A stretch of 64,000 bases of DNA from Escherichia coli (GTDB taxonomy: Bacteria; Pseudomonadota; Gammaproteobacteria; Enterobacterales; Enterobacteriaceae): assembly GCF_017348835.2 (NCBI RefSeq), contig NZ_CP072315.1; one strand, written 5' to 3'. Made by a program: the position numbers and the translations under genes. Under the pieces are notes generated by a model. The model had not been told where the DNA came from. It saw nothing but the letters and a program-made list of their open reading frames with translations, and did not search any database. Positions within the stretch are counted from its first letter, which is position 1, and each line of letters opens with the position of its first letter. Positions 5,495 through 49,941 of the stretch are shown one piece after another.

Positions 5495-5551
5495 TCCTGT
5501 TAAGGGGGAACCCTAACGGGGCTTCTCTTTGAACAAATCGAGGAGCGGAAA

Positions 5552-5929
5552 ATGTCATATCTTGAATATATCAATGAAGTAAAAGTGTCCGGGATAGTTA
5601 TCAGTGCTGTGGAGAAAAAAATGACTGACCAGAGTATAGGTTTGTTAATAAAGCTCAAAAATAGGATGAAGACAGAAGTTGATGGTGAAATCACTGAGAG
5701 AGAATTTTCAGTTCAAATCAAGGTGTCGCCTGAAATGTATTCAACCTGTTTCACTGGTATAAATCAGGGTGATGAGTTGATGGTCTCCGGTTATATTGTT
5801 GTCGATACTATTATGATTGAAGGGAGAGAACATCCTCTTGACTACATGAGAGTGGTAGCAACAAGTAAGTTGGCTCACATACCTAAACCTCTAAAAGGTT
5901 TTGGACAAAGTAGCTTTAATCAGATCTGA
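5552..5929 (+). CDS. Hypothetical protein (125 aa)
   Basis: ORF with GGAG-type RBS upstream; no motif recognised. Confidence 0.45.
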   Translation: MSYLEYINEVKVSGIVISAVEKKMTDQSIGLLIKLKNRMKTEVDGEITEREFSVQIKVSPEMYSTCFTGINQGDELMVSGYIVVDTIMIEGREHPLDYMRVVATSKLAHIPKPLKGFGQSSFNQI

Positions 5930-5949
5930 CATTAAACCCACCCTAAAGG

Positions 5950-5980
5950 GGAGAAATCCCTTCATGGGATTTCTCCTTTT
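5950..5980 (+). terminator. Intergenic hairpin + U-tract (terminator/attenuator-like)
   Basis: GGAGAAATCCC-ttcat-GGGATTTCTCC then TTTT, immediately followed by GGAG and the ATG at 5990. Confidence 0.55.
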
Positions 5981-5989
5981 GGAGTCCCC

Positions 5990-6967
5990 ATGAAACAAAA
6001 ATTTAGGGCTACTGCAATAAGTAGTAATCAACTTAGTTTTTTTTCTATACTCGATATAGATGAAGATGAAATAACGCAAATAGTTGATTCACCCAAAGAG
6101 CATTTAAATGATGCTTACACGTCCGGATTAAACTTTAAATCAGAAGAAAGTAACATTTCTGAGATAAATTATGATTCTGAAAGGCGTGAAAATCACCTTT
6201 ATGAAAAATCCAAATTACTTAAAAATCAGATTTTGCATACAATTAATTTTGCAGCAGAAACAGATTATCTATATACGGTTGAAGAATATAACCCAGATTT
6301 GGGTGGTCTGGTAATAGAATGGACCCCTGAGGATGTGTATGTTGTTTTTCTATCCGCTATGGAAGAGTCTTTGGAAATCATTAAAGAACTAGTGTTGAGG
6401 AGAAAGTTATTCTTCAAAGATGACAATGGTAATATCACAGTGAATCCACTTTTAGAAGCTGAAACACGGTGGTATATGTCAAAATCATTTGAATACACTT
6501 GTTTATGTCATGGACTTGATGCATGTGAATTTAGAGCGGAATTAAAATCATGGCTCTATTATCATTCGCATCGTTCGATTAGTGAAAACACGAAATTAGC
6601 TGAATGCAGGAATGATGATGAAATCATTTTGCATGATTGCAATGACGATATGGGCTGGGACATCTTCTTTGATCAGGATTATTTAATGTCAGAAAAAAAA
6701 CTGGCTGTTAAATGGACTGACAGGGAAATTATGGATGTTTACATAAAAGCTTTTAAATCCACATTAGAGTTGTTTGACGAGCTTGTTTCATGTGATCTGT
6801 TAACTAAACGAAACGCTTTTGGCAAGTTAGAAATCAATCCAATATTCGAAAATCATTTTGAATGGATCATGTCTGAAGCTTTTGAAATAGTGGGAAATCA
6901 TCTTGGTTATAATGTGCCTCAAATCAGGAAACTGATGGCAACTATTTGCCAAATGAATCTCAAATAA
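5990..6967 (+). CDS. Hypothetical protein (325 aa)
   Basis: Long AT-rich ORF with RBS; no motif recognised. Confidence 0.5.
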   Translation: MKQKFRATAISSNQLSFFSILDIDEDEITQIVDSPKEHLNDAYTSGLNFKSEESNISEINYDSERRENHLYEKSKLLKNQILHTINFAAETDYLYTVEEYNPDLGGLVIEWTPEDVYVVFLSAMEESLEIIKELVLRRKLFFKDDNGNITVNPLLEAETRWYMSKSFEYTCLCHGLDACEFRAELKSWLYYHSHRSISENTKLAECRNDDEIILHDCNDDMGWDIFFDQDYLMSEKKLAVKWTDREIMDVYIKAFKSTLELFDELVSCDLLTKRNAFGKLEINPIFENHFEWIMSEAFEIVGNHLGYNVPQIRKLMATICQMNLK

Positions 6968-7024
6968 AATGCCACTGGCAAACATCTGCCAGAGGGCGGT
7001 GTTTGCATTTTACCGGAGTTAAAA

Positions 7025-8083
7025 ATGTCTAATGCCGCTATGAAGTTAAATGAAACATCTTCTGATGCTTATGAAAAATTAGAAGCTCTTCTTTCCCCGG
7101 ATGTTATAAAGTTAAAACATTATGTGGATAAAGGTGAGTATCTTTTAGTTCTAGCAAAGGACCTTTTTGGTATTCCAGAAATGGATCCAAAGATGGCTGT
7201 GCCTGTTTTCAAAACTAAAACCTCGTATCGAGCTCCGCTGAACAAAGACTACATACCAAATCCCCGAATACTTGAACAAGTGGTTAAACTGCTTATCAGT
7301 CCGGATATAGATTTAAGTGTGTGTCTTAAAGGTGAGTCCGGTTCTGGCAAGACTGAAATGGTAATGTACATTAGCCACATGATGAATTGGCCGCTGACAA
7401 TTAAGCAGATCAACAGCAATATTCGAGTTGATGAGCTTGAAGGTGAGCGCAGTCTTAATGGTGGTAATACAGGTTTTGTACACAGCGATTTGGTAACGGG
7501 ATTTCGTAATGGTCACCTCATTCTTCTGGATGAAGTGGACAAAATCGATCCTGATACGGCAGCAAAACTTCACATGCCCATTGAACGTAAGCCCTGGTCA
7601 CTCAGTGCTAATGGTGGTGAGGTTATAACTGCTAATGGCTACACGCGATTTATTGGTACTGCAAACACAAACATGAGTGGAGGCGCTCGCCGGTTCGTTT
7701 CTTCTCAACGTCAAGATGCAGCTTTTATAAAGCGGTTCTTGATAGTTGAAATGGAGAAGCCCGACAAAGTTGCTTTAACCAATGTGCTTACTAAACGATA
7801 TAGCTCTTTGCCTTTTCAGGTCATTGAGAAGTTCGTAAGAGTAGCGATTGCAGTAAATGACTCTGGTACAGAAGACAGTGTGATGGATATTCGTCAATTA
7901 GTAGCTTGGGTTGGCACGTCGATGACGTTAAAAACCTTTAGTCTTCTTGACACTTTCAAAATAGCTTTTGCTTCTGCTTTACCTTTACATGTGGTCGATC
8001 TTGTTCTTCAAGCTATAGATCTTTCTCTTGGCGAAGACAAGGATAAATCGCTGGAGTATTTCACAGCAAAAAAGTCGAGTTAG
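7025..8083 (+). CDS. AAA+ ATPase, MoxR/CobS-like
   Basis: Walker A GESGSGKT, Walker B HLILLDEVDK; size (~350 aa) matches CobS/MoxR-type ATPases. Confidence 0.75.
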   Translation: MSNAAMKLNETSSDAYEKLEALLSPDVIKLKHYVDKGEYLLVLAKDLFGIPEMDPKMAVPVFKTKTSYRAPLNKDYIPNPRILEQVVKLLISPDIDLSVCLKGESGSGKTEMVMYISHMMNWPLTIKQINSNIRVDELEGERSLNGGNTGFVHSDLVTGFRNGHLILLDEVDKIDPDTAAKLHMPIERKPWSLSANGGEVITANGYTRFIGTANTNMSGGARRFVSSQRQDAAFIKRFLIVEMEKPDKVALTNVLTKRYSSLPFQVIEKFVRVAIAVNDSGTEDSVMDIRQLVAWVGTSMTLKTFSLLDTFKIAFASALPLHVVDLVLQAIDLSLGEDKDKSLEYFTAKKSS

Positions 8084-8418
8084 ATGGGATTTGTTATGAA
8101 ACCTCTGATATTTGTATCTCAGAGTTATCCCATCTTGAATTTAGTGCGTTTTTAAGTACGGATGGTGCTGCTACCATTGCTATAGCAAAAAACGGAACTA
8201 ATTTTACTGGACTTATGCAACTGAATAACGACTATTCTTTATTGTTTTATCATGATGGTAAAATAAATATGGAAGGTCTGATTAAACAAATGGAATTAAA
8301 AGGTTATATGTATCAGGGAGCAATGGGCAATGATGATGTTGTTGCTGAGTTTCCCGGTATTCTTTTAATTTCACCAGAGAAGCTTTAATATCAACCCTAT
8401 CGGGAAATCTTTCCCGTT

Positions 8419-8441
8419 GGGGAGGGTTTCCCCTTTTTTTT
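8419..8441 (+). terminator. Intergenic hairpin + U-tract directly upstream of an RBS
   Basis: GGGGA-gggtt-TCCCC followed by an 8-T run, then GGAG and ATG at 8452; an additional CGGGAAA/TTTCCCG hairpin at 8401-8416. Confidence 0.5.
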
Positions 8442-8451
8442 GGAGAAACCC

Positions 8452-9579
8452 ATGACTTTAAATACTTCAATGCTTAACAAAGTATCTGCAAAACAAATCT
8501 CTGAGAATTTTGCAAAATCATATCCAGATTTACTGGAAGGTGCAGTTATAACAAAAATTGAAATAAGTGGCTGTCAAGGATCGCGTCGAACCGATAAAAT
8601 CGATTTGTCTTATGATGGAGATGATATTACGGATCAAAAAAGCGTATCTAAAAGCGAAGTACGCTGGATTGACATAAAAGCCCTTAGCTTCAAAAGTACG
8701 ATTACCAGCAGAATATCAACTCTTTGCTCACGCTTGTGCATCCGCTATAGCAATATGTGGATTTTACCAGTATCCAGTATGGAAGAGTTTCTGGAAGGGG
8801 CCCAAGAGATTGAACGAGAGTTTCAGGCAGGTATTCAAAACGTTGTAGACAATTATGAGATGCATATTGAGGCTGAAAAAAATAGAAGCCCAAGAATGTC
8901 TTCTTTGATTGATCAGTTGAAATTAACTAAAGATGATTTCATAAAATCCTTTAGATTTAATATTGCTCACTTTATTCCTTTTACGCCTATTAGCGTTGAA
9001 GGTGATGAAACCCAGGACTACTATCAGGAACAATTGATAACAGATCTGGCAGAAGAAGCAATGAAGGTTTATGAAAAAATTAGCAAAAATAACAATTTGC
9101 GCTCAAGTACTATTGACCGACTGAAGCAAATGCAAAATAAGATCATTAGCTTCATGTTTATACATAAAGAGGCGGCAGTACTTGCAGAAGCTATAAAACA
9201 CATAATGAATAATTTACCTAAAGGTGCCATTTCTGAACCTCGCGACGTTGCGGTGTTACAGCAGTGGTTTTATTTCATGAGTGATGCTTCAATGTTAAAG
9301 CGTATTATTTCAGGAGAGCAAAAGGTTACTGACTGGTTGGAATCTATTACCAGATCATTTAATCAAAGCTCACAAACAGAACCGAACGCGCTACAGAACA
9401 CAGGTATTGAAGCTATTTTAGATTCAACAAATGTGTTCCAGGTTGAACCTGTCGTAGAGAACGATATAAATAACAGCACGTTTTCAAACACTGATCCTGT
9501 AGCTGAACCTGAGAAATCAGTTTCGCAACAGGAAGACAATGTTGAAAATGGTTTTGATATCGAGCTCAAAGGCTGGTAA
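8452..9579 (+). CDS. Hypothetical protein (375 aa)
   Basis: Track ORF starts at TTG 8440; ATG at 8452 has a GGAG RBS. No motif recognised. Confidence 0.5.
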   Translation: MTLNTSMLNKVSAKQISENFAKSYPDLLEGAVITKIEISGCQGSRRTDKIDLSYDGDDITDQKSVSKSEVRWIDIKALSFKSTITSRISTLCSRLCIRYSNMWILPVSSMEEFLEGAQEIEREFQAGIQNVVDNYEMHIEAEKNRSPRMSSLIDQLKLTKDDFIKSFRFNIAHFIPFTPISVEGDETQDYYQEQLITDLAEEAMKVYEKISKNNNLRSSTIDRLKQMQNKIISFMFIHKEAAVLAEAIKHIMNNLPKGAISEPRDVAVLQQWFYFMSDASMLKRIISGEQKVTDWLESITRSFNQSSQTEPNALQNTGIEAILDSTNVFQVEPVVENDINNSTFSNTDPVAEPEKSVSQQEDNVENGFDIELKGW

Positions 9580-9599
9580 CTGTTTGCTTTATTAAAAAC

Positions 9600-9641
9600 C
9601 CCAGATGGGTACTTCACCATCTGGGTGAGTACCCCTTTTTT
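9600..9641 (+). terminator. Intergenic hairpin + U-tract
   Basis: CCCAGATGG-(8 nt)-CCATCTGGG stem, then ACCCC and TTTTTT, 16 nt before the ATG at 9657. Confidence 0.55.
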
Positions 9642-9656
9642 ATAAAGAGGTATTCT

Positions 9657-11669
9657 ATGAAATTAGATCTTAAATCATCACCGCGCCATATTAAGCGTTT
9701 ACAGAATATAGCAAAAGTCATTAGCGGCTTAGGCGATGTAAGAGTTGTAATAGACGACAATACCAAAGGACCGTATTTTGATCCTGTAAATAAAGTTTGT
9801 GTTTTACCAAACGGCGATTATAGCGATGATGACTTTGTCAGTCTGATTGAAGGTTTTACCTGTCATGAAGCTGGTCATGGTCGCTATACCGACAGCGAGG
9901 TTTACAGTGACGCCTTTAATAGTGTTCTCAAGTCATCTGAAGGGTTTACACGCTTCGATGACGGAATGAATGCAGAGTTTGAGAGCCTCGCTGAGAAACG
10001 TAAAGCTTATAGCAGGGCAAAACGTCTTACCGGGCTTATAAATCTGTTCGATGATGTACAGATGGAAGAGAAGGTTGGTAACGATTATCCGGATGCAAAG
10101 CGGCGGCTTGCAGCCACTTACGCACTGATGGTTAAAGCCGGAAGGATGACTCCTGATATATCTTCTCGTCCGGAAAATCCTGTCCTATTTATTGAGTGGT
10201 ATCTGCTTAACTCATTGCGAGTAAAAGTCCTTCAGCAGGCAGGTCACAAAGAAACACTCGATCCGTTTTTTGACTATGCCCAAAAGATACTTTCTCCAGT
10301 AATTTCTGATGTTGAGGAAATTTTTCATGATGCTCTTGGTTGTGAAAATACTCAGGGCTGTGAATCCCTTGCTCGTAAGACCCTGGCTCTTTTAGAGAGA
10401 CTGCGGGATGAGGCAAGGGAACAACAGCAGCAGACAGAGCAGGAGGAGCAGGAGGCATATGATGAATCCGAGACCGATACCGATACCGATACCGAATCAG
10501 AAGATAAATCGCTTGAGTCGACTGATAGTCGTGAGGATGATTCTGAGGACGATAGTGAAGGTCAGGCAGATACTTCCGATAACTCTGATCTTGCTCAAGA
10601 GGGATGTTCTGAGCCTTCAGAACTTGCTGAAGATAACGAGGGAAATAATGAACCCACCGGTGGCAATCCCACAGGTGATAACATTATTGAAGACGATACT
10701 GATGCGATTAACCCTTCCGAGAGTGAATCAGATGAAGCCAGTTCGACTAACGTTGAAGATGAAAGTAACTTTTCATCGGCTCAATGGGAGATACTGGCAG
10801 ATTTGTTGGATGCCTTTCTTGGCAGTGATGAGGATAGCGAAGATTATCACGATGCTTTGGCTAAAGAGATTGAAGGTATTGCATCAAAAGTATCCGATGA
10901 CGTGAAAGCCGAATTCGGTGCTTCTGAATGGGATATCCCTGATCTCCTTATCGATTTGAATGTTTACAATGAGGCTTTGTCTCTGAGTCATTCAATCGGT
11001 AGCGACTTGTCTGTTTTACAGCAGGTTAAAATGCGTGGCCGAAACAAAACTCATGAGCGTGGAATTACCTTCGATGGAAATCGATTAATTCTGTCACCAA
11101 TGGGAGTTCGTGATGTCTTCAGAGCTCAAAGCGAATCTAAAAATAGAGGGCATGTTGGCCTCGTATTAGTTCGTGATATTTCAGCGTCAATGGCTAATGA
11201 TGAAAGATATATTCATGCCATTAAGTCAGATCTTGCTTTATCGATGGCCGCTGAAAGTTTGTCAAAAATGCATGTCTCCAATATAGTCTTTCCCTTCAAG
11301 GAAAGTGAATTTGAGATTATCAAAACGTTTGATCAAAGCGTTGAGGAATCTCTATCGAAATTCACTCTTGGATGTAAGGGTTATTATACCCCTACGGGAT
11401 CGGCTTTAATGGCAGCTGTTGATCTGTTACTTGACAGCCAATTCGATAGGAAAATAATTTTTCTTATAACTGATGGTTATCCGAATAAATCGGAATTTAC
11501 TATCGGCGAAGTTATGGAAAAGGCTAAATGTAATGGAATAGAAATCGTTGGTGTTGGTATTAAGACTGATGAAATAATTGGTTTTGAAACGGACACTTTC
11601 GTAACAGTTGATGATACTTCTTTATTGTCTATTGAAGTCAGTAAGCTAGTTCATCAAATACTTTCTTAA
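9657..11669 (+). CDS. vWA-domain protein, CobT-like, with acidic linker and N-terminal HExxH motif
   Basis: C-terminal vWA with MIDAS DISAS and ITDG; central highly acidic D/E/S/T-rich segment; HEAGH at residues 70-74. Architecture resembles CobT, the usual partner of CobS-like ATPases. Confidence 0.7.
   Translation: MKLDLKSSPRHIKRLQNIAKVISGLGDVRVVIDDNTKGPYFDPVNKVCVLPNGDYSDDDFVSLIEGFTCHEAGHGRYTDSEVYSDAFNSVLKSSEGFTRFDDGMNAEFESLAEKRKAYSRAKRLTGLINLFDDVQMEEKVGNDYPDAKRRLAATYALMVKAGRMTPDISSRPENPVLFIEWYLLNSLRVKVLQQAGHKETLDPFFDYAQKILSPVISDVEEIFHDALGCENTQGCESLARKTLALLERLRDEAREQQQQTEQEEQEAYDESETDTDTDTESEDKSLESTDSREDDSEDDSEGQADTSDNSDLAQEGCSEPSELAEDNEGNNEPTGGNPTGDNIIEDDTDAINPSESESDEASSTNVEDESNFSSAQWEILADLLDAFLGSDEDSEDYHDALAKEIEGIASKVSDDVKAEFGASEWDIPDLLIDLNVYNEALSLSHSIGSDLSVLQQVKMRGRNKTHERGITFDGNRLILSPMGVRDVFRAQSESKNRGHVGLVLVRDISASMANDERYIHAIKSDLALSMAAESLSKMHVSNIVFPFKESEFEIIKTFDQSVEESLSKFTLGCKGYYTPTGSALMAAVDLLLDSQFDRKIIFLITDGYPNKSEFTIGEVMEKAKCNGIEIVGVGIKTDEIIGFETDTFVTVDDTSLLSIEVSKLVHQILS
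10473..10493 (+). repeat. In-frame hexanucleotide tandem repeat (ACCGAT) x3.5 encoding TDTDTDT
   Basis: accgataccgataccgatacc read directly in the acidic linker of the vWA gene. Confidence 0.6.
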
Positions 11670-11685
11670 TAAACTCTACCCAATC

Positions 11686-11712
11686 GGGGCAAAAGGCCCC
11701 GGTGGGTCTTTT
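11686..11712 (+). terminator. Intergenic hairpin + U-tract
   Basis: GGGGC-aaaag-GCCCC then GGTGGGTCTTTTT, downstream of the 11669 stop. Confidence 0.5.
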
Positions 11713-11740
11713 TGCTCCATGAAGGAATAAGGAGCAAAAT

Positions 11741-11962
11741 ATGACTCAGATAAAAACTTACCGTGTAGAACATGAAAAAGTCGGTGCGATGCATAAAGTC
11801 CGTATTTTCGGACGTGTTGGTGAAGTTATAAGCAATGATAGCCCTCAGGAAAGAATCTTCCGCGAAGTCACTATAGCGGAGGGTAATAGCCAGCAGGCTG
11901 CGTTACTTGTAGATAACTACATACAGTGTCTTGAGAATAATGGCTTCACGACTGAAGCATAA
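11741..11962 (+). CDS. Hypothetical small protein (73 aa)
   Basis: ORF with AAGGAG-like RBS (aataaggagcaaaatATG) and its own downstream terminator. Confidence 0.45.
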   Translation: MTQIKTYRVEHEKVGAMHKVRIFGRVGEVISNDSPQERIFREVTIAEGNSQQAALLVDNYIQCLENNGFTTEA

Positions 11963-11967
11963 ATGTT

Positions 11968-11991
11968 GAGGGCCCCCGGGCCCTCTTTCTT
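11968..11991 (+). terminator. Intrinsic terminator
   Basis: GAGGGCCC-cc-GGGCCCTC perfect stem followed by TTTCTT. Confidence 0.55.
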
Positions 11992-12075
11992 AAATTCTGC
12001 GTTGTGGGTTTCTCCCTGTCTTCTGCACCGCAGAAGGCATTGAGAAACTCACAATGCCAGATAAGAGAGATCATC

Positions 12076-13308
12076 ATGACTTATGCATCCCCGGCTCTTC
12101 GTCGTAATCCACAGGAAGTATCTGAACACTTTATTAAACTCGTTCATGCTCGAATTGCTGAAGTGTCTGGCTGGAAGTATATATTCGAAAGAATACCTGC
12201 TTTCAAAGACGCTTGTGCAAAAGCCCCGAGCCAGGTTCCTTGCCCGTTTACTGGCGCAGGGAAATCGAAGTTTCGTTTCCGACAAAAAGACCTTTATACC
12301 GGATGTGCGATCCATAATGACTTTCCGGTAAATGAGTTTTGCGACGGAATTGATGTTCTGGCGAAATATTATGAATTAAGTAAAACGCAGACTTGCAAAA
12401 AGATTCTCTCAGATTTTTTCGGGATGGATCTGCATGCTCCGTTAACTGACGCCGACATTGAAAATGAACGACGCTATAAATCAGCAGTTCGTGCCACAGA
12501 AACTCTTGACCGAGAGGAAGTGGCAAAGCGAATGCGAAAACTTGATGTGATGTATCACTATACCGGTGAAATCAAGCCTAATACTCCTGTTGCTTTGTAC
12601 CTCCGTAATCGTGGGATCTCCCGCTTACTGAGTCACTTACCAAAGGATTTAGGCTTTAATAACCGGATCTACTATTGGGATAAAGATAAGCAGAAATCGA
12701 TTATCTATCCGGGAATGATTGCGATCTATCGTGACACCCGAGGTCGGCCTCTGACTATTCATAGAACATACGTAGACAAAAATGGTGATAAGGCACCTGT
12801 AGAAAATCCAAAGCTGATGATGAAGCCTCCTGCCGATATGACAGGTGGCTCAATTCAGTTGTTTGACCCTCACTATGATTCAGGTAGTTCGACCTGGACA
12901 CTGGGAGTGGCTGAAGGGATCGAGAACGCGCTTTCTGTTGTAGAAGCGACTTCAACACCATGCTGGGCAGCCAGCTCCGCATGGTGCCTTGAAAACGTTA
13001 CTGTTCCTGATTTTTTACTGCCTCCGCCGGATGTAAAATCTATAAACTTTTATATCTGGGCGGATAAGGATATTGCTAACTCACAAGGCACTCGTGCCGG
13101 TATTGAAGCTGCTCAGCGACTTCAAAGCCGCATGGTTGAGTTTTTGGCTAAACGATATCCCGCATCAAAGCTGACAATTGAAGTCTTCGAACCAGCACAA
13201 GATATTCCTGATGGGAAAAAGGGTATCGACTGGAACGATGTTCTCCAGTTAACAGGGCAGGATGGATTCCCGATTCACTGGGCTCCTGAATGTCTTAATC
13301 AGCTGTAA
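12076..13308 (+). CDS. Toprim-domain DNA primase-like protein
   Basis: Toprim signature (conserved Glu in LGVAEGIENALS, DxD in YIWADKD), N-terminal Cys cluster (VPCPFTG, CAIHNDF) suggesting a zinc-binding region. ATG at 12076 has an AAGAGAGA RBS; track start 12004 is GTG without RBS. Confidence 0.55.
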   Translation: MTYASPALRRNPQEVSEHFIKLVHARIAEVSGWKYIFERIPAFKDACAKAPSQVPCPFTGAGKSKFRFRQKDLYTGCAIHNDFPVNEFCDGIDVLAKYYELSKTQTCKKILSDFFGMDLHAPLTDADIENERRYKSAVRATETLDREEVAKRMRKLDVMYHYTGEIKPNTPVALYLRNRGISRLLSHLPKDLGFNNRIYYWDKDKQKSIIYPGMIAIYRDTRGRPLTIHRTYVDKNGDKAPVENPKLMMKPPADMTGGSIQLFDPHYDSGSSTWTLGVAEGIENALSVVEATSTPCWAASSAWCLENVTVPDFLLPPPDVKSINFYIWADKDIANSQGTRAGIEAAQRLQSRMVEFLAKRYPASKLTIEVFEPAQDIPDGKKGIDWNDVLQLTGQDGFPIHWAPECLNQL

Positions 13309-13339
13309 CAACGATAACTCCCCCGCTTTTTGCGGGGGG

Positions 13340-13387
13340 GGTTATCTTATCAATATTATATTTTAAAATTGTATTGATAAGATAACC
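13340..13387. repeat. Perfect 16-bp inverted repeat with 16-nt AT-only spacer
   Basis: GGTTATCTTATCAATA - ttatattttaaaattg - TATTGATAAGATAACC, directly after a CCCCCGC/GCGGGGG hairpin (13320-13338) downstream of the primase-like gene. Confidence 0.75.
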
Positions 13388-13578
13388 GCTTTCCTTCGTG
13401 ATAATTACCTGCCTTTAAGGTCTTTTCACGGCTGAGATGCTTGCTCAGTTAAATAAATGTGCGGTACTACTGGCTATGGTCGGTTGTATGACATGGTTAT
13501 TCCATAAACTATTAAAACCCATAACGGGAGTATTACCGTTATGGTGATGCTCGTCGTTTTACATCGGAGAGCATTTTA

Positions 13579-14100
13579 ATGAATTTTCAAATTAACGAAG
13601 TTTTTAATAAATTTGCTGCTGTTATAAAATCGCGCATCGTCAATGAACCATCGTCATGCTATTTGCTGCATGATAATGAGATAGATATAACGATTTTGAA
13701 ACATAGCATATTAGAAAATGACAGAAACCTGTTGTACGTAGTTCGTCCTTCAGGAACGTGTTTGTTGCGTTGTGACAAATATTTCTATCCGAAATATTAT
13801 CTTCGTTGCCGTGGAGATTATAAGTCATTCATATATGTCCATCTTGATCTACATAGTGGTGAAGCTAAAGAAATCACATGGGAGCAAGCAGACGATATGC
13901 TGTCTAGTCCAGGAAAACCCCCATTAAAAGGGAATCTTGGACGATTTGAGTATATAAAAGTTGTGGTTGAGGACCTTCGTATTCGAGGTTACGCTGATTA
14001 TCTTCCTGCGTATAATCTTGATGACCTTCGCCGTTTTGCCTTACAGGACGACCGCCCATCCCTTGTCAGATACATTGACAATGTCATGGCAACGGTCTGA
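13579..14100 (+). CDS. Hypothetical protein (173 aa)
   Basis: ORF with RBS (cggagagcattttaATG); no motif recognised. Confidence 0.45.
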   Translation: MNFQINEVFNKFAAVIKSRIVNEPSSCYLLHDNEIDITILKHSILENDRNLLYVVRPSGTCLLRCDKYFYPKYYLRCRGDYKSFIYVHLDLHSGEAKEITWEQADDMLSSPGKPPLKGNLGRFEYIKVVVEDLRIRGYADYLPAYNLDDLRRFALQDDRPSLVRYIDNVMATV

Positions 14101-14178
14101 TTGATTGCTAATTGATTTACATATTTTCCCTGATGGCCAACCTGCATCAGGGAGGCCTCAATAACGAATGGAGGCTGT

Positions 14179-15057
14179 ATGAAGTTAGCTACGGACCTGG
14201 TAAAAGCTATTTTGATTAGAAATGGCGTTGAACCAGTAAATATAAGCGAATCATCTAAGTTATCTTTGAAACAACCACTGACAGAACTTAAATTCAGTTT
14301 ATATTTGCGAACTGAGCATTTATCTCACTTCCTACCCGGTTATGTTTATTCTATAAAAGAATGTCCACTGTCATATGACATCGGGATCGAAATTCAGAAA
14401 ATCTTCGAAAGTTTACATTTGTTAAACGAAGAATTTGAATCCCTCGGTTTTGTTTCTGTATGGATAGAAATGCATCAAAGCATTTTTGAACAAAGTCGGT
14501 TTAAGAAAAGTAACTTTACTTTTCGGGAGGAAGAGGTCGAGCTTGCTAAAGGGCTTGTTTGTTCTCACAATTCACAAATAAGTAATGCGGCTTATTTCTG
14601 GCTTCAGCACTTTGAGGAGTTTATGATTTATGTTCGTAATAAGCTTATCGACCTCTTTCGAGAGGCCTATGACCTGATCCTTGGAATGCAGCAAGTATTT
14701 TTCATTCGGGAAAAGGAAGAGCTGTTGAAAACTATAAGTTATGGCGATGAGCTGTATGAGGTGAAATTCATGGCGGCTGAGCTTTACTCTATCGAACAGA
14801 ACTTAAAGTGTTCTGAATCGATAAGTACAAAATCTCAAGCTTCGGCATATATTAACCGCATCCGTGAGTTTGTGCGTTCGGGGTGGAGGCAGGGCTATAT
14901 AGTCTGCCATCATAAGCGAAGTAATCAAATTTCATCATTGTCATTACCGATGTACTTGAAAGATACGTCAGGCCGAAGTGCTCGAAAGCGAGTAAAACGT
15001 CTTATATCTTCTACAGTTTGTGGTAGAAATAAAGATTTAGGTCTTACAGATTTTTAA
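14179..15057 (+). CDS. Hypothetical protein, member 1 of a tandem array of ~300-aa genes
   Basis: 292 aa; same size class and N-terminal pattern as the next four genes; own RBS (ggaggctgtATG). Confidence 0.5.
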   Translation: MKLATDLVKAILIRNGVEPVNISESSKLSLKQPLTELKFSLYLRTEHLSHFLPGYVYSIKECPLSYDIGIEIQKIFESLHLLNEEFESLGFVSVWIEMHQSIFEQSRFKKSNFTFREEEVELAKGLVCSHNSQISNAAYFWLQHFEEFMIYVRNKLIDLFREAYDLILGMQQVFFIREKEELLKTISYGDELYEVKFMAAELYSIEQNLKCSESISTKSQASAYINRIREFVRSGWRQGYIVCHHKRSNQISSLSLPMYLKDTSGRSARKRVKRLISSTVCGRNKDLGLTDF

Positions 15058-15075
15058 TTAAATTATACCCATGTG

Positions 15076-15111
15076 GGGATCACACCCCATATGGGAGTGA
15101 TCCCTTTTTTT
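15076..15111 (+). terminator. Intrinsic terminator between array genes 1 and 2
   Basis: GGGATCAC-(13 nt)-GTGATCCC stem followed by a 7-T run, then GAGAGG RBS and ATG at 15128. Confidence 0.6.
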
Positions 15112-15127
15112 ATTGAGAGAGGATCAC

Positions 15128-16063
15128 ATGAAAATTATCGAAAAAATCATTAATGCCTTTTTGGTTGTTCAACATAAAAAAATACAGGTTAAAAACATTA
15201 CATTTTTAGACAATGGGCAGGGCATGTTCTCTGGTATGTCTTTTGATGCTGATGTTTCACTGGAGTTTATGTATGAATCAGCAAAAGCATATAGTTCTTG
15301 TTTCTGTGATATTCCCTTTCCAGGTTTTGAAGATGCAAATCTGGAGGAAATTACGAAATTTCAATTAGATGCTTTGAAGCAAAGAAAGAATCATTCTTTC
15401 TTTGTTAACCATTTGAGGTTTCCTATAGTTTTAAGGGAAGGGTGCAAAATCGAAAGAGGAGAAGTCTATTCAATTTCGAATTGCACTTATAATAAAGAAA
15501 GATTGCAGTATCTTTTTTCTCAGGATATTTACGGTAAGTTGTATAATTCCTTAGAGAAAGAATTAAGCTCGTTTTTCTCATTTATCAATGTTGAGGTGCA
15601 CGAGTTGTTAAAAGATGCTGTATGCTTTGCATTAAAAATCCTGAATAAGATATCTTTGGATACACCTGAAAGACTTATTAAAGCTTTTAATTATCGTGAC
15701 TGGTATTGTAGTTACGATGTTGAGCTTTTTAGGAAAGGCTTACCTGGTCATATTCTGGAAGAGCTCATTGCTCCAGATATCTTACTTTCAGACCTTAACG
15801 GTTGTAGAAAAATACTTAGAAATGCAAAACGAGTTCTAAATGGACATACACAAACCAATTGTGTTTATATTAAATATGAATGGTGGTTGGGGCCTGTTGA
15901 TACCTCACACTCAGCTAAGTTGATGTCTGACAAAGAAATTAATAACCGAAGTGACTTGAAGAATTTTTCAAAGGTCTTTTTCAAAGAGTGTTTAAGTTCT
16001 GGTAAGTCGGAATATGAAAACCATCTTAGTGAAAAAGAACATGCGCTTCGCTATAATTATTAA
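15128..16063 (+). CDS. Hypothetical protein, array member 2
   Basis: Track start 15113 is TTG; ATG at 15128 has a GAGAGG RBS. 311 aa. Confidence 0.5.
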   Translation: MKIIEKIINAFLVVQHKKIQVKNITFLDNGQGMFSGMSFDADVSLEFMYESAKAYSSCFCDIPFPGFEDANLEEITKFQLDALKQRKNHSFFVNHLRFPIVLREGCKIERGEVYSISNCTYNKERLQYLFSQDIYGKLYNSLEKELSSFFSFINVEVHELLKDAVCFALKILNKISLDTPERLIKAFNYRDWYCSYDVELFRKGLPGHILEELIAPDILLSDLNGCRKILRNAKRVLNGHTQTNCVYIKYEWWLGPVDTSHSAKLMSDKEINNRSDLKNFSKVFFKECLSSGKSEYENHLSEKEHALRYNY

Positions 16064-16084
16064 TTAAAATTATTTTCTCCCATA

Positions 16085-16111
16085 GGGATTTCTCCCTATG
16101 GGAGAAATCCC
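16085..16111 (+). other. Perfect 12-bp stem hairpin between array genes 2 and 3
   Basis: GGGATTTCTCCC-tat-GGGAGAAATCCC; no clear U-tract after it. Confidence 0.6.
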
Positions 16112-16131
16112 TCTATTAAGAGGGTATTGAA

Positions 16132-17052
16132 ATGAATGCTATACAAAAGTTAGTTGAATCTATTCTTGTTAAAATGGGTTTTGTTGGCGCTGTAGTGGAA
16201 AATATATATTTGGATTCAAAACCATTTCGGCATATTCGATTTGTGGCTGATATTCCAGTAATATCTTTTCTACCTCATTTGGTGAAATATCTTAAGGGTG
16301 CAGACCATCTTTACAGTGGTAACGATGATTTGCATCCTCTTTTCATTTATTTTTCCGAAGCGGCTACATTAAAAGCAGGTCCTGTAAATCTCGCGAACTT
16401 TCGTTTTGAAGTTTCTATAGCTTCAACTCATTTACGACTGGTCTCAGAGCAGCCTGATTTGCTTTTCAAAGGATTTAACCGGGATAATCTAGAATACGTT
16501 TATTACCGCTCAGATTTGGCCTCTAAGGATCTTATACTAGGCCTTGTTGAACACGGTTCTCCTTTCATAAAACATCTACATGGACTTATACAAAAGCGAA
16601 TTTTAAACGAGTTCTCTCTGATTTTTTCTGTTCTTGAAAAGATTTTAGAAAGCGCGAAGCCACAAATTCTTGCTTGCTTCCATAGTGTTGATTATGAAAT
16701 GAACGTAAAAATAATAGCCGAAGCTATACCTGAAACTGTATCTAATCAGATAGTCACATCTGATTATATAGTTAATTCTATATCAGATGCGGACAAGTTT
16801 ATAAATCATGTTCGTCGCTATTTAGCAGGCAGGGTAATGAAGAGGCGGATATACGCTGAATTAGATGTTTGTGAAGAAACATCAAGTATTTCACTAGTGA
16901 ACTTAGGATGCTTTACGTCTCCTCTGCTCGTTACGGAATATCAAATGTTTAAGCCACACTCTTCAGGGTTATATCGAAAAGCTATAAACAACTCCTTAAA
17001 ACAGTTCAAACCAGAAATGCATGTACCTTCTGAAGAACTCTTTTATAATTAA
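16132..17052 (+). CDS. Hypothetical protein, array member 3
   Basis: 306 aa ORF; RBS agagggtattgaaATG. Confidence 0.5.
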   Translation: MNAIQKLVESILVKMGFVGAVVENIYLDSKPFRHIRFVADIPVISFLPHLVKYLKGADHLYSGNDDLHPLFIYFSEAATLKAGPVNLANFRFEVSIASTHLRLVSEQPDLLFKGFNRDNLEYVYYRSDLASKDLILGLVEHGSPFIKHLHGLIQKRILNEFSLIFSVLEKILESAKPQILACFHSVDYEMNVKIIAEAIPETVSNQIVTSDYIVNSISDADKFINHVRRYLAGRVMKRRIYAELDVCEETSSISLVNLGCFTSPLLVTEYQMFKPHSSGLYRKAINNSLKQFKPEMHVPSEELFYN

Positions 17053-17062
17053 TCTAACCCAT

Positions 17063-17100
17063 CCGGGAACCTGCTTCCCGGTGGGAAGCACTTCCTTTTT
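17063..17100 (+). terminator. Double hairpin + U-tract between array genes 3 and 4
   Basis: CCGGGAA-cctgc-TTCCCGG followed by GGAAG-ca-CTTCC and TTTTT; then GAGGTAGTGTA RBS region and ATG at 17119. Confidence 0.55.
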
Positions 17101-17118
17101 AGTCATGAGGTAGTGTAA

Positions 17119-18057
17119 ATGTTTAAAGAATCTGACCACGTGGAATTTGTTAGTGCCTTTCTTTATCAAAATTTAGGCCTTAATGTTTCCGCTGACGATA
17201 TAACCGTTCAATTATCTGATACTTCGTTCGACAAAGTAACCTTTGATTACGATGTAGATATCGATAATTTAAATTGTATGTTGGATCTCTACATATCTGA
17301 GCTAATAAAGCACAACGCATCTTACTCCGATTCTATTCTTTTGAAACAAAAAATAATTTATTTTCTTGGAGTATTTAAGAATTTCGGATTTTTTACGTTT
17401 GATATTCGCGGATATAGTAATACTTTAAGCCCAGTTAAAGTTATTGATATTGTTTCAATGATTATTAATGACTGTGAAGAGTTATCTAAAGCTAATTCTT
17501 CTACTGATGCTATAAGAAATCTTTATCTCGATAAAATGAAGGTGGATGGGAAAGTGTTAGTTGCGAAATTTGCACTTAAACAGTTTTTTCATTCCGACTT
17601 TGGTGACTTTATCTCATTTGTCGAGAAAAGAATTACAGATTGTCTTAATGAAACTTTAAGGATTATCAAAGCTGTTGAACATGGCTTTGTACGTGTAGGG
17701 CAGCATAAGATTAATCGCCGTATTAATGATGACTTAAAGTTATGCATTGATTTCAATACTGATGATTATCCGGCAAATATGCCAGATATATATATTAAGT
17801 TTAACGATACATTTGATGGGAACGGGGCGTTATATTGTGACAATGATGCCCTCATATCCCTCTATACCGATGTTGCTTCAATTATCAATGTGCCGGTGAT
17901 GATGGAAGTAAGATTGATCAATAAAAGAGGGCGTGTTGTCTGTGATTCTTCGCATTCAACTTACGTATCTCTCGAAAGTAATGACCGATACAGAGTAACT
18001 GATCGCACATTACTAATAACTGAAGCTTTTGACGATTTTCGTAACGCGTCTCAATGA
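17119..18057 (+). CDS. Hypothetical protein, array member 4 (clear paralogue of member 5)
   Basis: Blocks shared with the next gene: KMKVDGKVLVAKFALKQFFHSDFGDFISFVEKRIT vs LMQVDGQVMIARFALQQFWDTHFIGLITFVSESIT, and HSTYVSLESNDRYRVTDR vs HTVYVSELTGGRIKIHDR. Confidence 0.6.
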   Translation: MFKESDHVEFVSAFLYQNLGLNVSADDITVQLSDTSFDKVTFDYDVDIDNLNCMLDLYISELIKHNASYSDSILLKQKIIYFLGVFKNFGFFTFDIRGYSNTLSPVKVIDIVSMIINDCEELSKANSSTDAIRNLYLDKMKVDGKVLVAKFALKQFFHSDFGDFISFVEKRITDCLNETLRIIKAVEHGFVRVGQHKINRRINDDLKLCIDFNTDDYPANMPDIYIKFNDTFDGNGALYCDNDALISLYTDVASIINVPVMMEVRLINKRGRVVCDSSHSTYVSLESNDRYRVTDRTLLITEAFDDFRNASQ

Positions 18058-18176
18058 TCCTTTTGCTTCAGTCCAAAAAAGTAACTTTGGTTGGCTGAAG
18101 ACACTTGTCTATGACAATGTAAAATCTGTCGCTGGCATCTTCTTTTAGCTTAACCAAATTTTTATCTAACCCAGTG

Positions 18177-18191
18177 GGGAAGTCGCTTCCC
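18177..18191 (+). other. Hairpin in 5' region of array gene 5 (copy of the gene-4 upstream element)
   Basis: GGGAAG-tcg-CTTCCC; followed by the same GAGGTAGTGTA-N-ATG leader seen upstream of gene 4. Confidence 0.5.
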
Positions 18192-18228
18192 TTCTGGGGC
18201 ACTTCCTCTCAAATTCGAGGTAGTGTAT

Positions 18229-19185
18229 ATGACACATTCATCTGATGATAAAAACTATGTCCGAGCAGTTCTGAGTTATCTTGGCATAGATTTTGATGAG
18301 GCGGATATAGTATTAAGTGTTTGCCATTGTCAAAGTGACGAGCTTTCTTTTACCTGTAATATCAAAGCTATTGAACTCAAGAATGTTGTTGATTTATATG
18401 TCGATAGTATCTCTGAGAATGAAATAGAAGCTTTAAACAGAGAATCTTTAAAATCGCGACTCTGTTACTTTCTTGAGGTGTTTGACGCAGTCTCTGGTCA
18501 GTACCTTGAAATTTCAGGAAAACACTTTGCAACTAGTCGTTTTGAATATGATGATGTTTGTAGTGAAGTTCTTAGCATGTCTAATGATGTTTCTCAGTCG
18601 AAAGGTTATGACCGGGATGAATATAACAGACTGATGCAGGTTGATGGTCAGGTTATGATTGCCCGTTTTGCTTTGCAACAGTTCTGGGATACTCATTTTA
18701 TTGGACTAATAACATTTGTATCTGAGTCTATAACATCGAGCCTCTATAAAGCTTATGAAACTTTTAGTGATATTAGTTTGGCTTGCTATAAACTGAGTGA
18801 ATATTCTTATTCACGCTCTATCAACAGTGAATTGACCCTTAATATTTCACTTAAAGAAAATGACTTCTGTGAGGACCTATCTGATTGCTATATGGAAGAT
18901 GAGGCTTTACCTTCTGGTAGGGTAATTTCTCGACGCAACAATGACTCCATAATAAGTATTTATGAGAGCTATGCTGCGGCTTCTTATATTCCGATGATTG
19001 CATCTTTGGAAGTCGTTGATGAATACGGCGAAGTGGTTACTGACCTCTGCCATACCGTTTATGTTTCAGAGTTAACCGGTGGGCGGATTAAAATCCACGA
19101 CCGTAATGACTTAGTATCTGAAGTTTTCGATAACCTAAGAAATTTAAATCTTGCAGTTGGAGATTCAGTTTCACAAGCTGCTTGA
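18229..19185 (+). CDS. Hypothetical protein, array member 5
   Basis: Track start 18223 is GTG; ATG at 18229 has a GAGGT RBS. Paralogue of 17119-18057. Confidence 0.6.
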   Translation: MTHSSDDKNYVRAVLSYLGIDFDEADIVLSVCHCQSDELSFTCNIKAIELKNVVDLYVDSISENEIEALNRESLKSRLCYFLEVFDAVSGQYLEISGKHFATSRFEYDDVCSEVLSMSNDVSQSKGYDRDEYNRLMQVDGQVMIARFALQQFWDTHFIGLITFVSESITSSLYKAYETFSDISLACYKLSEYSYSRSINSELTLNISLKENDFCEDLSDCYMEDEALPSGRVISRRNNDSIISIYESYAAASYIPMIASLEVVDEYGEVVTDLCHTVYVSELTGGRIKIHDRNDLVSEVFDNLRNLNLAVGDSVSQAA

Positions 19186-31337: not shown

Positions 31338-31422
31338 AATTTTCCTCGTACGGCTGGTACGGCCAGCAGAAAACGTTGCTGTACAGAAAGGTGCTGCCCG
31401 GAAAGCAGCACCTTTCTGTCTG

Positions 31423-49689: not shown

Positions 49690-49842
49690 GTAAGCTAACT
49701 ATCTGAAATGACGAAGGTTCATTTGGTGAATGTCGCTTCATATTAATGTTGTGTCACTTATGATCGTATGTAGCTGGTTGCAAAGAGGAGCGATGAGACA
49801 ATAAAGTTGTATCGCTAACAAGATTTATGCTGCCACATAGTA

Positions 49843-49941
49843 ACAGCCTAAAAGTTGTACGCCCTATTTAACAGCTTTTAGGCTGTTAATTTGATATTAC
49901 AGCTTTTAGGGTGTATGTTTAGGAAACAGCCTGCAAGGTGT
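49843..49941 (+). promoter_or_regulatory. Four evenly spaced operator-like repeats upstream of hipB
   Basis: ACAGC-N6-GTTGT (49843), ACAGC-ttttag-GCTGT (49871, perfect palindrome), ACAGC-ttttag-GGTGT (49899), ACAGC-ctgcaa-GGTGT (49926); spacing 27-28 bp, ending 28 nt before the hipB ATG. Confidence 0.6.

Follow-up and report, generated by a model that had tools for sequence, protein, structure and literature searches.

The long inverted repeat behind the toprim gene of IncHI2 plasmids may be a sense-strand RNA hairpin of a compound terminator

Compound or leaky intrinsic terminators place a GC-rich stem-loop right after a stop codon, followed by a U-rich tract, and cause a partial drop in downstream expression with regulated read-through. 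At lambda tI/sib, only the read-through RNA forms the cleavable structure, and related RNase III stems are found in the rpsO-pnp leader and at the T7 R sites. Single-strand initiation (ssi) signals, such as the G4-, phiX-, and ABC-primosome-type hairpins, ssiA/ssiB of RSF1010, and Frpo of F, are stable hairpins of one strand. The inverted repeat described here, which lies behind a GC-rich hairpin (T1) on an IncHI2 plasmid, resembles each of these systems in part. T1 and the interrupted U-rich tract after it resemble the layout of a leaky intrinsic terminator; unlike a terminator, the repeat is an AU-rich second helix made of the terminator tail and its downstream complement, without a good U tract behind it. 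As in lambda sib/tI and the RNase III stems, a terminator overlaps a longer duplex that can form only upon read-through, the helix of ~20 bp corresponds to roughly two turns, and the internal mismatches conserved in the IncHI1 versions recall T7-type sites. However, read-through extends the terminator stem in lambda sib, whereas here a separate adjacent helix shortens the T1 stem, and the likeness to sib and the RNase III stems is one of predicted structure with no sequence relationship. The resemblance to ssi signals consists in a stable one-strand hairpin on a conjugative plasmid beside a primase-like gene. In contrast to them, the sequence of the repeat is unconserved, contains no known recognition motif, and is embedded among RNA-only elements; its hairpin is also too short to hold the -35 and -10 elements of Frpo.

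The window analyzed here, a stretch of 64,000 nt from an E. coli contig (NZ_CP072315.1), belongs to an IncHI2 (R478-like) plasmid. Over the 2.2 kb around the repeat, more than 1,100 IncHI2 plasmids from hosts including Salmonella, E. coli, and Enterobacter match the window at 99-100% identity, and a separate segment matches R478 itself at 100%. A 270-nt non-coding gap, flanked by a toprim/DUF7146 gene and a gene for a 173-aa protein (Table 1), holds the repeat. This part of the plasmid follows Tra2, the transfer region with trhN and trhI, and precedes a tus-like gene; every gene from trhI to past the tus-like one has the same orientation. The neighbourhood of the repeat comprises toprim, VWA, AAA ATPase, and DUF3150 genes as well as uncharacterised ones. 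The description of the upstream gene as primase-like is plausible from its Toprim_3 and DUF7146 domains but unproven, with no match to its protein in searches of NCBIfam and of PDB sequences.

The 173-aa gene is followed at 14179-19185 by five tandem genes of similar size (292, 316, 306, 312, and 320 aa), which look like a paralogous array; the 292-aa gene, the one of the five that was scanned, has no Pfam or NCBIfam match. Two plasmids carry insertions near the repeat. In the IncHI2 plasmid NZ_CP085727.1, IS903B is located directly behind GATAATTAC, 21 nt past the repeat at the position equivalent to 13408, and the following genes are lost; this plasmid is nonetheless typed as conjugative. 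CP122839.1 has an IS3-family insertion inside the 12000-14200 stretch. It follows that plasmid maintenance does not require the genes downstream of the repeat.

Table 1. Positions of the genes and predicted structures around the inverted repeat, numbered from the first letter of the window.
Feature	Position	Strand	Description
Hairpins upstream of the toprim gene	gap 11963-12075		GC hairpin and T tract at ~11969-11988; ~70-nt hairpin at 11999-12069
toprim/DUF7146 gene, 410 aa	12076-13308	+	Pfam Toprim_3 and DUF7146; annotated in RefSeq records of identical plasmids; final gene ahead of the structured gap
T1, extended form	13313-13346	+	GAUAACUCCCCCGC / loop UUUUU / GC-G-GGGGGGGUUAUC; 14 bp, -23 kcal/mol; followed by UUAUCAAUAUUAUAUUUU
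T1, short form	13318-13340	+	9 bp (8 GC), 5-nt loop, -19 kcal/mol
Inverted repeat / RNA stem-loop P2	13340-13387	+	5′ arm 13340-13359, U-rich; loop 13360-13367; 3′ arm 13368-13387, A-rich
Linker TTTCCTTCGTGA	13390-13401	+	invariant in all 7 variants; UUUCCUU single-stranded between P2 and P3; CGUGA opens P3
Structured block	13397-13517	+	P3 13397-13430, P4 13431-13449, then P5 and P6
Two-hairpin module	13519-13575	+	hairpin 13519-13544; hairpin 13546-13575 sequesters the Shine-Dalgarno sequence of the 173-aa gene
173-aa gene, function unassigned	13579-14100	+	start codon at 13579

The two 16-nt arms of the repeat, GGTTATCTTATCAATA (13340-13355) and TATTGATAAGATAACC (13372-13387), are exactly complementary, as the initial annotation had reported, and are separated by 16 nt. 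The spacer between them had been described as A/T only; it reads TTATATTTTAAAATTG and has a G at 13371. The complementarity runs on inward to give 23-nt arms that are 87% complementary and 2 nt apart. Folded as RNA, the repeat forms 17 pairs (one U.G), one mismatch, 2 further pairs, and an 8-nt loop, with a free energy of -20 kcal/mol. It is the longest perfect inverted repeat in the window among those with loops of up to 40 nt, and since the arms never exceeded 13 nt in 100 windows simulated with a first-order Markov model, the view that such a palindrome is unlikely to arise by chance was borne out. The suggested search for other copies on the replicon returned none: no second copy was found in the window within 3 mismatches, bar one chance-level match, and none elsewhere on the plasmids, the repeat being a single locus per plasmid in ~1,130 IncHI2 plasmids. 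The IncHI2 arms contain a TTATC-TTATC duplication.

The GC stem of T1 is formed by CCCCCGC (13320-13326) and GCGGGGG (13332-13338), and it is extended by pairing of GATAAC (13313-13318) with GTTATC (13341-13346). Both of the latter motifs are invariant in all lineages; T1 itself is kept in all of them, while its loop and inner stem vary. A terminator scan flagged the GC hairpin as terminator-like on both strands, and T1 has the GC-rich stem of 5-14 bp and the short loop by which terminators are recognised, whereas the AU-rich repeat does not. The repeat had been placed immediately after the GC hairpin. The two do adjoin, but the hairpin also overlaps the first 7 nt of the repeat. The tract past the extended T1 stem is U-rich but interrupted, with 7 U in 12 nt in IncHI2 (UUAUCAAUAUUA) and 8 U in 12 nt in IncHI1 (UCUUUAGUGUUU); with 4-5 U in the first 8 nt, it is an imperfect U tract. 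Both clades keep a U-rich 5′ arm in the repeat, with 11 U in 18 nt. The sequence after the repeat, CCGCUUUCCUUC, is a poor U tract.

Stepwise folding reproduced this overlap as a switch of partners. When the RNA was extended from 13295 up to 13364, the minimum-energy structure was the extended 14-bp T1 (-23 to -24.5 kcal/mol) followed by UUAUCAAUAUUAUAUUUU. Once the RNA reached past 13387, GUUAUC exchanged its partner, leaving the 9-bp GC hairpin next to a repeat helix of ~20 bp at -38.3 kcal/mol. As the 5′ arm is both the tail of T1 and part of its stem base, the repeat hairpin can form only in read-through transcripts. The initial annotation had named as its refuting alternative that the palindrome is merely the terminator of the primase-like gene. 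This is correct insofar as the 5′ arm constitutes the U-rich tail of T1, but the repeat is not the terminator hairpin itself.

We compared the same gap in four further lineages, namely IncHI1A/R27-like plasmids, plasmids typed as IncHI1B+IncP, one species genome of Pseudocitrobacter vendiensis, and ten metagenome contigs that include one new variant. The DNA of the toprim gene is ~76-77% identical between IncHI2 and two of the lineages (L004 and L006). Within the region, conservation is lowest in the repeat, with 61-65% identity between IncHI2 and IncHI1. In contrast, the rest of the gap is 84-85% identical (84% for the ~130-nt stretch 13388-13517 comprising P3-P6), above the 74-77% of the flanking genes. 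No lineage departs from the outer motifs TTATCT and AGATAA, which lie 42-45 nt apart, and the inner 10-14 nt of each arm differ between lineages. Between the clades the inner arms are swapped from CTTATCAATAT/GTATTGATA in IncHI2 to CTCTTTAGTGTTTA/TAAAYNCTAAAC, with complementarity kept. The loop is free in sequence and length (6 to ~16 nt), and the helix of the IncHI1 types has 18-20 bp with 1-2 mismatches, including a C.C mismatch that the IncHI1 lineages share along with G.U pairs. As the IncHI2 plasmids are at least 99% alike, conservation among them is uninformative on selection.

Covariation was assessed on an ungapped alignment of 7 distinct variants (two of IncHI2, three of IncHI1A, one of the IncHI1B type, and one metagenome lineage). 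In the 20-pair helix, 92.9% of the cells are paired, against 44-51% with 0-1 covarying pairs in controls shifted in register by 1-3 columns. Eight pairs never vary, five show one-sided changes, and five show compensatory double changes, the last of which stem from one deep split (IncHI2 versus IncHI1-type) and hence represent few independent events. The RNAalifold consensus recovered the same helix unprompted. All one-sided changes proceed via G.U on the + strand, with 14 G.U cells versus no A.C cell. Folding favours the + over the - strand in every lineage: the advantage is 1.1-4.5 kcal/mol when the repeat is taken alone, and for the whole gap the values are -100 to -106 versus -75 to -86 kcal/mol, a difference of 18-27 kcal/mol. 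Because the structure is kept while the sequence diverges, and the G.U changes are those of one strand, the repeat is best described as a hairpin of single-stranded + (sense) nucleic acid. Judged from these alignments, it is non-random and under constraint, although sequence alone cannot separate a + strand RNA from + strand ssDNA.

In the IncHI5/pNDM-MAR-type plasmids of Klebsiella, whose toprim protein is 45% identical, the gap is only 68 nt long and contains neither the GC hairpin nor the repeat nor the block that follows. No analogous hairpin pairs were found behind the distant toprim genes of Pseudomonas, Aeromonas, and IncC plasmids. A mobile element as the origin of the ~200-nt block missing in the HI5-type plasmids was considered and rejected, as the block has no terminal repeats and no copies elsewhere. 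One IncHI2 record, NZ_CP026642.1 (pFORC82_1), was the only one seen with a disrupted repeat. Its GC hairpin also contains indels, the record lacks an annotated toprim gene, and misassembly of a hairpin-rich AT stretch seems a likelier cause than natural variation.

These features suggest that the repeat is a sense-strand RNA hairpin belonging to a compound terminator/attenuator, a reading to which we assign about an even chance. This element would close a transcription unit that extends from behind trhI as far as the toprim gene. Upon leaving the toprim gene, RNA polymerase would produce the GC-rich hairpin and the U-rich 5′ arm, and part of the transcription would terminate there. If the polymerase reads through, the A-rich 3′ arm would emerge, capture the U-rich tail, and strip the GUUAUC base from the T1 stem, so that a short terminator hairpin would be stacked beside an AU-rich helix of ~20 bp. 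We infer both termination at T1 and an effect of the helix on the read-through RNA. The helix would mark this RNA and most likely lower or shape expression of the downstream array. It might be a processing or stability element for a double-strand-specific (RNase III-type) nuclease, or it might mask an AU-rich tail prone to RNase E and Hfq in a long untranslated spacer. An RNase III-type role possibly accounts for roughly half of the chance given to the terminator/attenuator reading; RNase III stems are near-continuous over ~20 bp, and the IncHI2 helix has 17 bp, a mismatch, and 2 bp. The repeat would then be a conventional, if uncatalogued, piece of RNA punctuation, which is absent from Rfam and of which we found no description.

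The initial annotation had likened the palindrome to an operator, resolution, or partition site, that is, a DNA duplex bound by a dimeric or tetrameric protein. The palindrome is indeed long and perfect, its outer motifs are invariant, it precedes a long gene array, and the IncHI2 right arm has TTGATA 19 bp upstream of GATAAT. However, operators, parS, and res sites have a conserved half-site with fixed spacing and an adjacent binding-protein gene or multiple copies. Here the inner half-site sequence is replaced between IncHI2 and IncHI1, where the repeat falls to the identity given above against 76% for the neighbouring gene, the spacing of the outer motifs is not fixed, there is one copy per replicon, and no regulator, ParB-type, or recombinase gene adjoins. 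The IncHI1 versions moreover have conserved mismatches, and one-sided changes that obey G.U rules on one strand would be meaningless for duplex recognition. Nor is there a conserved sigma-70 promoter: at the repeat, TTGATA-19-GATAAT occurs only in IncHI2, GATAAT inside the right arm occurs only in IncHI1, and nothing is conserved. Resemblances to IHF, Fur, DnaA-box, XerCD/dif, and Tus/Ter sites, judged by eye against consensus sequences, were neither convincing nor conserved between lineages. A duplex protein-binding site is thus very improbable, and to regard the repeat as an operator, partition site, or origin is tempting but probably wrong.

Covariation and the strand bias, as G.T, would suit a + strand ssDNA hairpin as well as an RNA. 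Such a hairpin could serve in priming (single-strand initiation) or as another ssDNA site in conjugative transfer or lagging-strand synthesis, possibly used by the toprim protein, and the repeat does adjoin a gene with a toprim domain. An almost invariant 70-nt hairpin also lies in the gap upstream of the toprim gene, and the hairpin neighbouring the repeat partly matches the ssNA-helicase motif of Rfam, which is suspected to act as ssDNA. On the other hand, the locus is situated behind the Tra2 region, and oriT presumably lies in Tra1, a separate region; the remainder of the gap has features that are sensible only in RNA, namely anti-SD/SD hairpins and a terminator hairpin with its U tail; and more distant plasmids with homologous toprim genes lack the repeat. 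Sequence-specific priming sites normally keep their sequence, whereas no part of the gap is less conserved than the repeat, and inspection of the sequence revealed no DnaA box or known ssi signature conserved between lineages. The sequence TTATCAATA shares only 7 of the 9 positions of the DnaA box TTATCCACA, and IncHI1 does not conserve it. We therefore regard an ssDNA site as unlikely. The wider proposal that the repeat, the 70-nt hairpin, and the ssNA-helicase-like hairpins are all + strand ssDNA signals, at which the toprim/DUF7146 protein primes the complementary strand after transfer, would give IncHI plasmids an encoded primase with its own dedicated hairpin start sites, but it is highly unlikely. 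The repeat might instead be a functionless by-product, a quasi-palindrome beside a terminator that is kept perfect by template-switch (hairpin-templated) mutation. AT-rich quasi-palindromes are substrates for template-switch correction, the IncHI2 arms are exactly perfect and carry the TTATC-TTATC duplication, and the IncHI2 plasmids (at least 99% similar) are too alike for conservation to reveal selection. Yet the pairing outlasts divergence to 61-65% identity, the IncHI1 lineages retain the C.C mismatch and G.U pairs instead of homogenising them, a wobble bias of 14 to 0 is not expected from correction at the DNA level, and the RNA-type constraint extends over the whole gap. This explanation is accordingly unlikely, while the 16/16 perfection of the IncHI2 arms could owe something to template-switch correction.

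The terminator/attenuator reading can be compared with the microarrays of all R27 genes (Gibert et al., 2020; PMC7366339). In that study, a nine-gene cluster, R0002-R0204, was strongly induced at 25 °C and derepressed in the htdA mutant. At 25 °C the signal fell from 403 for R0204 to 49 for R0203 in the wild type and from 15984 to 5679 in the htdA mutant, these figures being per-gene microarray intensities rather than mapped RNA ends. R0203-R0198 were derepressed 38- to 115-fold, at about one-third of the upstream level (PMC7366339), which points to read-through past R0204. We assigned the R numbers by counting genes in the RefSeq annotation and in our own list of R27 ORFs. Most likely, R0204 is the toprim gene and R0203 the 174-aa gene, if R0197 is insC and R0196 represents an additional ORF within IS2; on the arrays R0197 behaves like insD, which fits this assumption. 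In the alternative numbering, with the toprim gene as R0203, the large drop would lie one gap upstream, and a change of ~2-fold (5679 to 2740) would remain here; the gap upstream of the toprim gene also holds a GC hairpin with a T tract. Depending on the numbering, the signal drop across the repeat-bearing gap is 2.1- to 8-fold. Under either numbering, the data agree with a putative leaky stop in the region and read-through that would feed the downstream genes. Plasmids of the IncHI1 and IncHI2 types are major vehicles of resistance to multiple drugs, colistin, and heavy metals, and their temperature-dependent expression is only partly understood. Our result would set a regulated leak-through boundary at the end of the thermo-induced, HtdA-controlled cluster behind Tra2.

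The long gaps of this cluster hold RNA structures that are better conserved than the genes. In the repeat-bearing gap, the linker behind P2 served as the anchor for scans of the sequence collections. The two-hairpin module is the sole part of the gap kept in the HI5-type relatives, and in its first hairpin the lineages differ by one compensatory pair and one G.U change. No sigma-70 promoter conserved between lineages was found anywhere in the gap, the sole -10-like hexamer being the 5′ arm of the conserved RNA hairpin P3, and the downstream genes consequently depend on read-through, in keeping with the RNA-type constraint over the gap as a whole. A small ORF at 13457-13507 (16 codons, MCGTTGYGRLYDMVIP) is partly conserved but was rejected, as it has no Shine-Dalgarno sequence, has lost its stop codon in one lineage, and shows no third-position bias. 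An antisense RNA ending at the hairpin 13544-13519 on the - strand was likewise rejected because the wobble pairs of that hairpin favour the + strand.

A search of the gap against 4227 Rfam models yielded no hit at the gathering threshold, and sub-threshold microRNA models fit the hairpin shape by chance. The hairpin 13519-13544 scored 23.4 bits against RF03070 (ssNA-helicase; gathering threshold 41.5) over model positions 3-29 of 49. Its alignment with the model's first hairpin is close and takes in the loop AGUAUUAC; this partial, sub-threshold match concerns the neighbouring hairpin and not the repeat reported here.

The surroundings of the repeat are arguably of more interest than the repeat itself, in particular the two-hairpin modules and the near-invariant hairpin that precedes the toprim gene. 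The 70-nt hairpin pairs a T tract with the Shine-Dalgarno region of the toprim gene and includes several G.U pairs on the + strand. It is near-invariant even in the IncHI5/pNDM-MAR-type plasmids of Klebsiella, despite the divergence of their toprim protein, and occurs once per plasmid in 1,969 plasmids; it has no match in Rfam. In the + strand gene array at 5495-18228, nearly every intergenic gap carries the same two-hairpin module (for example, 8383-8451, 9580-9656, 11670-11740, 13518-13578, 15058-15127, and 17053-17118). The module consists of an ACCCAnnnGGG...CCCnnnTGGG hairpin and then a hairpin of an anti-SD sequence, a T-rich loop, and a Shine-Dalgarno sequence just before the ATG. This sharing suggests a common translational or termination control of the whole array.

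Further inverted repeats were observed in the window. The stretch 16064-16131 contains overlapping perfect inverted repeats at 16074-16107 (15-nt arms) and 16084-16112 (13-nt arms), whose hairpins are mutually exclusive around a Shine-Dalgarno-like GGGAGAAA; a related GGAGAAATCCC/GGGATTTCTCC hairpin is located at 5950-5976. A perfect inverted repeat at 31383-31419, ACAGAAAGGTGCTGC/GCAGCACCTTTCTGT, has 15-nt arms and a 7-nt loop and is terminator-like, and another at 49841-49888, TAACAGCCTAAAAG/CTTTTAGGCTGTTA, has 14-nt arms and a 20-nt spacer.
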